A DNA stretch of 23,820 bases from a virus (taxonomy: Duplodnaviria > Heunggongvirae > Uroviricota > Caudoviricetes): IMG/VR virus record IMGVR_UViG_2534681938_000038. The stretch is one strand, 5' to 3'. Made by a program: the position numbers. Each line of letters starts with the position of its first letter. Position 1 is the first letter of the stretch. Positions 12,001-15,000 of the stretch are shown one piece after another.

Positions 12001-15000
12001 GCACACCGTACACCTGATGATTTTCATCGTATACGCGCTGTATCTCTCTCTTCAGCCAGTCGTCGTGCTGCGCACGGGCACTGCGTTTATCCGGATGATG
12101 TCGCTGTTGCTGACAATGGTAATACGTTGACGGGGCAATATGCAGTTCGCTGCATACCGGTCCGACCCCGTACTGCTCACGCAGCTTATCCAGCAGTGGC
12201 ATCATTTTTTCCAGAGGCGGTCGAACTCCGCCTTCGCAAAATAAGCGGAAGCCTGGCGAAGGATATCGTTACTGCGGCGCAGTTCACGATTTTCACGTTC
12301 CAGCTCTTTCAGACGCTGACGTTCAGCGCTGGTGAGCCCACCATCACCGCCCCCGGTATCCCGCTCATGCTGGCGAACCCAGACACGCAGAGTCTCCGGC
12401 GTACAGCCAATCTTTGGGGCAATGGAACAAATTGCCGCCCACTGTGAGTCATATTCATCCTGACTTTCCAGAACCATACGAATCGCCCGCTGACGGACTT
12501 CGGGGGAAAAACGAGTATTTTTAGTCATCCTGTTTACCTCTTTCTCAGGGAGTTTAGTCTCCAGGATTTCCGGGGCGGTTCATTTTCAGTTGCGGGATAA
12601 TTTTCTTCAGGCGGCGTTTTCGTTTCTCGTTGACCGCAACAGCGTGTGGAAGTCTGTCACCGACTTCGGTGTTGTAGGCGTTCAGGAAGGATTCGTAGTC
12701 GATTCGTTCTGCCTTGCGACGTTCAGGTTTAACCTGCCCATCGCCATCCCCGTTAGGGGGTAAGGGGGTATTTGTATTTATTGTCTTTTGTATATTGTCT
12801 TTTGTGTTTAGCTGACTTGGCTTATACCCATTAGCCGACTTGGCTAATGTTTTATTAGCTGTTTTAGCTAATGTTAAGCTGTCCTGGCTAATCCACTGAG
12901 AAACCACCTTGTTCACTCCGATTTTCACGCCATCAGCAATGAGGAATTTACGCTCAATAAGCTGGCGCTTGGCAGCGCAAACATGAGTGTGATGAATACC
13001 TGTCATGGCTGCTATCTGCGTGTTTGTGAGTCGATCCATCGGCTTATTGAATCCGTATGTCTTGCGCATGATAGCGAGCATCACCTTCAACTGCCGGACG
13101 GTTAAATCAGCCATCAGCAGACTGTCGGTAATCTCGTTAGCAACGCGCATGAAACCATCTTCGGTATCTGCCACGCGATGCTCCACGACCTCCAGTTGAG
13201 GCCTGTAATCAGCTAACTTAACGACGCCCATGTTTCACTCCTGCTTTGGCTAGTCTGTAAACACCAACAAGGCGCTCTGCGAACGCCCTGTTATTTGCTG
13301 CGGCTACCACTAATCCCTCAGGTGAATCAGGGTGTCGAATCTCTTCTTTTTCCTGGTATTTCTTACGACGTTTTGTCATAATTACTCCTGTGGATTGATC
13401 CAGTAATTCCCTCAGAATTGCATATCAATTTGCTTAAAATCCTCGGTGGCAGCCGGGGATTTTTTCTTTGTGATTTCATCAAGCGCATACTTAAAAGCCC
13501 TGCTAATCGGACTGATGTCTGATGCCATTCCGAAAGCACACAAGACCGAAGCAATAAACCGCCAGTCCGTTCTGCTTATCTTCGATTCATGACAGCCAAT
13601 CATCTTTGCCAGACCGCGCTGTGTAAGCGTTGACAGGTTGATGAGTAAATCTGTTTCTGCGCGATCAACGTCGCGCTGTGATAGTTTGCTGTAACTTGTT
13701 CGTTCCATTTCTTAAGATTTCCAATAGTGAATAGTTAGTTGAAAGGTATGCGTGGAAACGCATATGGCCTTAGTTGGTCAGATATCTTGGGACTCGCTTT
13801 TCAGCGACGTAGGACGAATGTCCGTTGTTACAAAGAGCGGCTCCGCTTATTAAGCGGCTTTGTGCTCCGGCGGGAACACGTCATCAAGACTTACTTTTGC
13901 GCCTAACTTGTTTAGACACGCAACAAGAGCACGGCATGTTTTAAGGTCTGGGAAGCGACGACCAGATTCCCAATGTCCGATAGCTCCCTGTGTGCATCCA
14001 ACTGCCTTAGCAAGTGTTGTTTGAGAGATATTCAGTGACTCTCGATATTTTCGTAGGTTGCTCATATGCCCTCCATAGTAACCACGAATAAAAAAATACA
14101 ATATGTACTTCTCAAATACAAGTAAAAATACACATTGTGCATGGATGGTTCCAGTACAGAGCGTAATAATAAGGACATGAAAATGAAATGGTATGAACTG
14201 GCTAGATCCAGAATGAAAGAGCTCGGCATAACTCAAGAGAAGTTAGCCGAAGAGCTAGGTATGACGCAGGGTGGAATTGGACACTGGTTGCGCGGATCTC
14301 GTCATCCATCTCTTAGTGATATTGGTGTGGTGTTTAAATACCTTGGTATTGATAACATATCATTCAACCACGACGGGACATTTTCACCTGTTGGCGAATA
14401 CTCATCGGCCCCAGTTAAAAAACAATATGAGTACCCTGTTTTTCTCATGTTCAGGCTGGGATGTTCTCTCCAGAACTCAGAACCTTTACCAAAGGTGATG
14501 CGGAGAGATTGGTAAGCACAACCAAAAAAGCCAGTGACTCTGCATTCTGGCTTGAGGTTGAAGGTAACTCAATGACCGCACCAACAGGTTCCAAACCTAG
14601 TTTTCCTGACGGGATGTTAATTCTGGTTGACCCTGAGCAAGCTGTTGAGCCCGGCGATTTCTGCATAGCCAGACTTGGTGGTGATGAATTTACCTTCAAG
14701 AAACTGATCAGGGATAGCGGTCAGGTGTTTCTACAACCACTAAACCCGCAATATCCAATGATCCCATGCAATGAGAGTTGTTCCGTTGTGGGGAAAGTTA
14801 TCGCCAGCCAATGGCCTGAAGAGACGTTTGGGTAAAGAGGATAGATGGAGTTTAATGGCCATGAGTATCAAGCGGTCAAAAAGAAGTTCATCTATTCATT
14901 GAAAGCATAAGGCCATCTGAGTATATCCGTAATGATCTGGATATTGTCTATAACATCAATGACCGGACGATAGATATCGGTGAGCAGCGTCCTGTATGGC

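Follow-up and report, generated by a model that had tools for sequence, protein, structure and literature searches.

The cI gene of the window, that is, of the whole stretch of 23,820 nt analyzed here, is split into two reading frames at a run of five T residues, and this split very probably reflects a homopolymer under-call in the draft assembly GCA_000249375.2, so that the real gene would be an intact cI of 231 codons. Judged by sequence comparison, the gene is not a new mosaic but the known CI of the Sp5/VT2-Sakai/2851 immunity type, and the locus belongs to a lambdoid prophage of the phage 2851 type (Stx2c-type, integrated at sbcB) in E. coli O157:H7 DEC4A. The biological weight of the split is small, since nothing about the mosaic CI or the immunity group to which it belongs is new and an error of assembly is the best explanation of the frameshift.

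The window is identical to positions 80-23899 of the 45,884-bp contig AIFK01000037.1 of E. coli DEC4A (GCA_000249375.2, a draft of 2012), and the protein EHU90968.1, the product of a gene O truncated by IS629, also places it on this contig. A literature search with the strain name retrieved one paper, in which DEC4A was used in plant-adherence assays. The early region of the prophage occupies positions 6760-23820, in reverse orientation relative to lambda. The minus strand encodes antA, dam, ninB, P/dnaB, O, cII, and cro, and the plus strand encodes cI, an ORF of 173 aa, N, an ssb-like gene, cIII, kil, gam, bet, and exo, onward to int. The ORFs and the transferred annotations thus show a divergent cro and a lambdoid early layout, with cII-O-P on one side and N on the other. 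The features of the immunity region and of the adjoining replication gene are as follows:

11273-12582, minus strand: IS629 inserted in gene O, not found at this place in phage 2851 or in any finished E. coli genome.
12554-13231, minus strand: replication gene O, truncated by IS629 to 225 aa (intact, 273 aa), as in EHU90968.1 of DEC4A.
13412-13708, minus strand: cII (Pfam Phage_CII).
13850-14065, minus strand: cro, encoding an HTH protein of 71 aa (assigned from the phage 2851 record by shifting its coordinates; Pfam HTH_3).
14066-14140, no strand assigned: cro-cI intergenic region with the presumed OR operators and PR/PRM, from its position between the divergent cro and cI.
14141-14515, plus strand: N-terminal frame of cI, with the HTH domain and the linker (ORF list and translation).
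14177 and 14183, plus strand: alternative starts of cI, the former from the phage 2851 record, the latter chosen in an earlier sequence-only reading of this DNA (phage 2851 and RefSeq annotations).
14439-14443, plus strand: the T5 run, which is T6 in lambda, phage 2851, and the relatives.
14443-14835, plus strand: C-terminal frame of cI, with the SHVQ-AG cleavage site and the S24 autopeptidase/dimerization domain (translation and lambda alignment).

According to the ORF list and the translations, the two parts of cI are offset by −1 at 14439-14443, where the window (14430-14450) reads CCTG TTTTT CTCATG, resulting in an HTH frame and an S24 peptidase frame. The N-terminal frame continues for 19 out-of-frame residues after the T-run and then reaches a stop codon at 14515, and the C-terminal frame remains open to 14835, where it ends with WPEETFG. 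A continuous frame for both domains is absent in the sequence as given and present once a single T is restored, in which case the resulting protein of 231 aa is identical to the CI of phage 2851. On other contigs, a product identical to the N-terminal one is matched by Pfam HTH_3 and HTH_31, and a product identical to the C-terminal one by Peptidase_S24 (PF00717). From the membership in these families, the HTH domain would be expected to bind operators in the cro-cI intergenic region and to set the immunity specificity, and the S24 domain to provide dimerization, cooperativity, and RecA-stimulated self-cleavage at Ala-Gly; cI and cro are transcribed in opposite directions from either side of the presumed operator region.

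The T-run precedes the Ala-Gly autocleavage site by five codons, and the first ATG of the C-terminal frame, at 14461, encodes the Met that directly follows this site. The position of this ATG is the one feature that speaks for a functional split, in which programmed ribosomal frameshifting or transcriptional slippage would restore CI, or two polypeptides, an HTH fragment and an S24 domain reinitiated at ATG 14461, would be produced deliberately. Such an arrangement can practically be dismissed: all relatives have a single-frame gene with T6, and neither a conserved out-of-frame arrangement nor a conserved slippery site was found among them. Moreover, the other sequences that contain T5 are error-prone assemblies, and five T residues in a row do not suffice for transcriptional slippage to be efficient.

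The relatives of the gene are numerous. The cI region of 801 bp shares 99.9% identity with over 40 records of Stx phages, among them VT2-Sakai/Sp5, the Stx1 and Stx2 phages of Morioka V526, 1717, YYZ-2008, 2851, Nil2, and the PA series, as well as with several hundred chromosomes of E. coli O157:H7, and every top match is one base longer than this region. The gene is annotated in these relatives as CI repressor or "LexA family protein", with CI used in dozens of phage records. Many O157 genomes contain the cI region at two places. Across the 15.7 kb shared with phage 2851, the window differs by two substitutions, one single-base gap, which is located in cI, and the IS629 insertion; the 11.2 kb that include the cI-cro immunity region account for two SNPs and one gap. 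A C-to-T difference from phage 2851 is found at position 14089, in the cro-cI intergenic region next to an A7 run. The T at this position is shared with several other contigs, so that it represents a common allele and not a private one.

We aligned the window with lambda (NC_001416; CI protein NP_040628.1). For positions 14425-14835 versus lambda cI, the mosaic boundary was placed at about TATGAGTACCCTG, just ahead of the T-run. Counted from YEYPVF through its last residue, the protein is identical to lambda CI in 135 of 136 residues, the exception being one W to L change, and the QAGMF, GNSMT, and FKKL motifs, the roles of which are known from lambda CI, are all identical. At the DNA level, the identity of the same segment is 92.9% (29 differences in 411 nt); 28 of these differences leave the protein unchanged, which indicates strong purifying selection on the C-terminal domain in different immunity types. 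The N-terminal domain aligns with the HTH region of lambda CI with an identity of about 25%, so that the operator specificity, and hence the immunity, differs from that of lambda. The alignment also bears on what had been concluded from the sequence alone. The C-terminal domain had been described as lambda-identical, which is true at the protein level but not at the DNA level. As had been proposed, the DNA-binding domain at the N-terminus is non-lambda, and the combination of both domains in a mosaic cI was borne out as well, although this immunity type has long been known. The T6 run that had been ascribed to lambda is indeed present at the place homologous to the T5 run, and the ORFs as well as the alignments with phage 2851 and lambda confirmed that the two halves are in different frames owing to this difference.

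The prophage is incomplete on the contig, and so is its chromosomal surrounding. A search of 5,426 finished E. coli genomes did not retrieve the junction between IS629 and O from any of them. Provided that the assembly is correct, the disruption of O leaves the prophage unable to replicate. Positions 1-6761 are not phage DNA but belong to a chromosomal island, 99.985% identical to EDL933, with an ISEc8 transposase, an IS4 remnant, a TonB-dependent receptor, and an IS629 variant. This variant (5452-6761, 95.8% identical to IS629) joins the island directly to the phage gene antA, and the junction at 6761/6762 falls exactly where phage 2851 carries an IS629 of its own. In EDL933, the same island is followed by cbeA/cbtA, yeeA, sbmC, dacD, and sbcB. 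On the contig, these genes are missing from this place, and with them the entire late half of the prophage, including Q, stx, and the genes for lysis and morphogenesis. The 6761/6762 junction results either from an IS-mediated deletion or from an assembler join through the repeat; in no finished E. coli genome was a junction of the IS variant with antA found. Because neither of the two IS junctions occurs in a finished genome, there is no finished sibling genome from which the true length of the T-run could be read.

The state of the prophage would make it tolerable for T5 to be a real mutation, that is, a private replication slippage in DEC4A, in a defective prophage in which selection on the repressor is relaxed. 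In addition to the interruption of O by IS629 at 11273-12582, which leaves 225 aa, and the joining of the island to antA on a contig that lacks Q, stx, and the lysis and morphogenesis genes, this reading can draw on the two copies of the cI region in many O157 genomes, which make immunity in trans plausible, and on the position of the frameshift, five codons ahead of the cleavage site. Translation would yield an N-terminal HTH fragment, which would stop shortly before Ala-Gly and resemble a RecA-cleaved repressor. The isolated N-terminal domain of lambda CI binds operators weakly and without cooperativity; by analogy, the HTH fragment would dimerize poorly, bind its operators weakly, and lack cooperativity, and the remnant would be either Cro-dominated ("anti-immune") or silenced by the identical CI of a co-resident Sp5-type prophage. 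However, the missing late region may itself be due to an assembler join through an IS repeat, at a junction that is present in no finished genome, and, given also the distribution of T5 and the other indels described below, we consider a real mutation unlikely.

If T5 were real after all, it would mean no more than a further, private stage in the decay of a prophage remnant that is defective anyway. The HTH fragment would end five residues before Ala-Gly, and the S24 domain would possibly be reinitiated at Met 14461. A further scenario, which we regard as highly improbable, is that of a naturally "pre-cleaved" repressor, the free S24 domain of which, started at Met 14461 and identical to that of Sp5-type CI, could form mixed dimers with the intact CI of a co-resident Stx phage of the same immunity type and could then have a dominant-negative, modulating effect on the spontaneous induction of that phage and on its toxin output.

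The occurrence of T5 in other sequences argues for an under-call. A probe of 81 bp centered on the T-run had an exact T5 match in none of the 767 finished E. coli genomes and in none of the 61 phage records that contain this stretch; the best matches of the probe all show a one-base gap, that is, they contain T6. Likewise, a 28-mer with T5 was found in none of the GTDB species-representative genomes. Elsewhere, T5 is confined to draft or error-prone assemblies, and it is always accompanied by further homopolymer indels. Two UViGs of IMG/VR, 2529293142_000029 (6584-6611) and 2529293041_000011 (942-969), combine T5 with an A6 to A5 contraction 16 bases upstream, and this double contraction still leaves cI out of frame. 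Both represent different prophages, with cI alleles that are 93-97% identical to that of the window, and their T5 and A5 runs are probably errors of the same kind. T5 is also present in GCA_008122345.1 and GCA_008122335.1, where about 20 gaps open in every 11 kb of comparison with the window and which look like unpolished long-read assemblies. These two assemblies are chromosome-scale, include the same prophage region, and contain many fragmented gene calls (dnaB, ninG, Q). Finally, five Logan contigs with T5 each have one or two extra indels, every one of them in runs of at least six.

The same kind of indel recurs on the contig itself. We extended the analysis beyond the window by 8.85 kb into the chromosomal backbone (int, sbcB, tsuB/A, plaP, yeeY, yeeZ, hisG). 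Compared with the finished genomes of EDL933 and FRIK2455 and with three other assemblies, this extension has exactly two indels, an A6 to A5 and an A7 to A6 contraction, which are adjacent to each other in the plaP-tsuA intergenic region (window-equivalent position about 28.05 kb). Altogether, AIFK01000037.1 has three indels in 32,670 bases, all of them one-base contractions of runs of at least six. Such runs account for 0.8% of the bases, and the probability that uniform placement would put all three indels there is about 5e-7. Substitutions are nearly absent, with two in 11.2 kb (versus phage 2851) and one in 7.9 kb. Against a real mutation at the T-run stand the two further one-base contractions in conserved non-phage DNA of the same contig, which has no other type of indel. 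Three independent slippage events next to hardly any substitutions would require a mutator background, and nothing points to one.

A draft of the same project, that of DEC4B (AIFL01000061.1), has a lesion of this kind in another run of cI, which again speaks against a real mutation in DEC4A. In DEC4B, T6 is intact and cI is split by an A6 to A5 contraction at the window-equivalent position 14417, and a second A6 to A5 contraction is found about 1 kb downstream (window-equivalent position 15433), in the 173-aa ORF. The DEC4B sequence thus has two homopolymer contractions in 7.7 kb, and its gene O is intact. The DEC drafts presumably involved 454-type (pyrosequencing) chemistry.

This pattern of indels is the signature of homopolymer under-calling and is unlike that of independent mutations. 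Taken together, the lack of T5 in finished genomes, the further contractions on the same contig, and the break of the DEC4B gene at another run favor a sequencing error, and we infer that the T5 call itself is wrong. Three points can be held against an under-call. The 23.8-kb window contains one indel in total, so that gross errors do not abound in the assembly; IS629 in O and the absence of the late half from the contig have already disabled the prophage, so that a genuine loss of cI would be tolerable; and T6 runs are also natural sites of slippage. The choice between an inactive repressor and a homopolymer sequencing error, as posed by the sequence-only reading, was the right one, and the evidence strongly favors the latter.

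The result also has a practical side. In draft and long-read assemblies of E. coli, false frameshifts recur at this T6 run and at the A6 run that precedes it by 16 bases, and an "inactivated cI" of an Stx prophage in such data is no evidence of defective immunity unless it is supported by reads.

In comparison with homopolymer under-calls in draft and long-read assemblies, the case described here shares the one-base contraction of a run of at least six, the co-occurrence with further contractions in the same contig and in the same project, and the lack of the contracted allele in finished genomes; it differs in that it is known from the comparison of assembled sequences. Lambda CI shares with the CI of the window 135 of the C-terminal 136 residues, including the Ala-Gly cleavage site and the Ser/Lys catalytic motifs (GNSMT, FKKL), as well as the divergent layout of cI and cro and the T6 run at the homologous place. 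In contrast, the N-terminal DNA-binding domains are only about 25% identical, and the window has the 173-aa ORF downstream of cI where lambda has rexA/rexB. The closest system is the CI of Sp5/VT2-Sakai, 2851, 1717, YYZ-2008, and Nil2 (ECs_1185; CAQ82008.1; WP_001302016.1), with which the window shares 99.9% of the DNA over 801 bp and also the neighborhood, in which cI is flanked by cro, cII, O, and P to one side and by the 173-aa ORF and N to the other. From these phages, the window differs by one T fewer in the T6 run and by the IS629 in the adjoining gene O.
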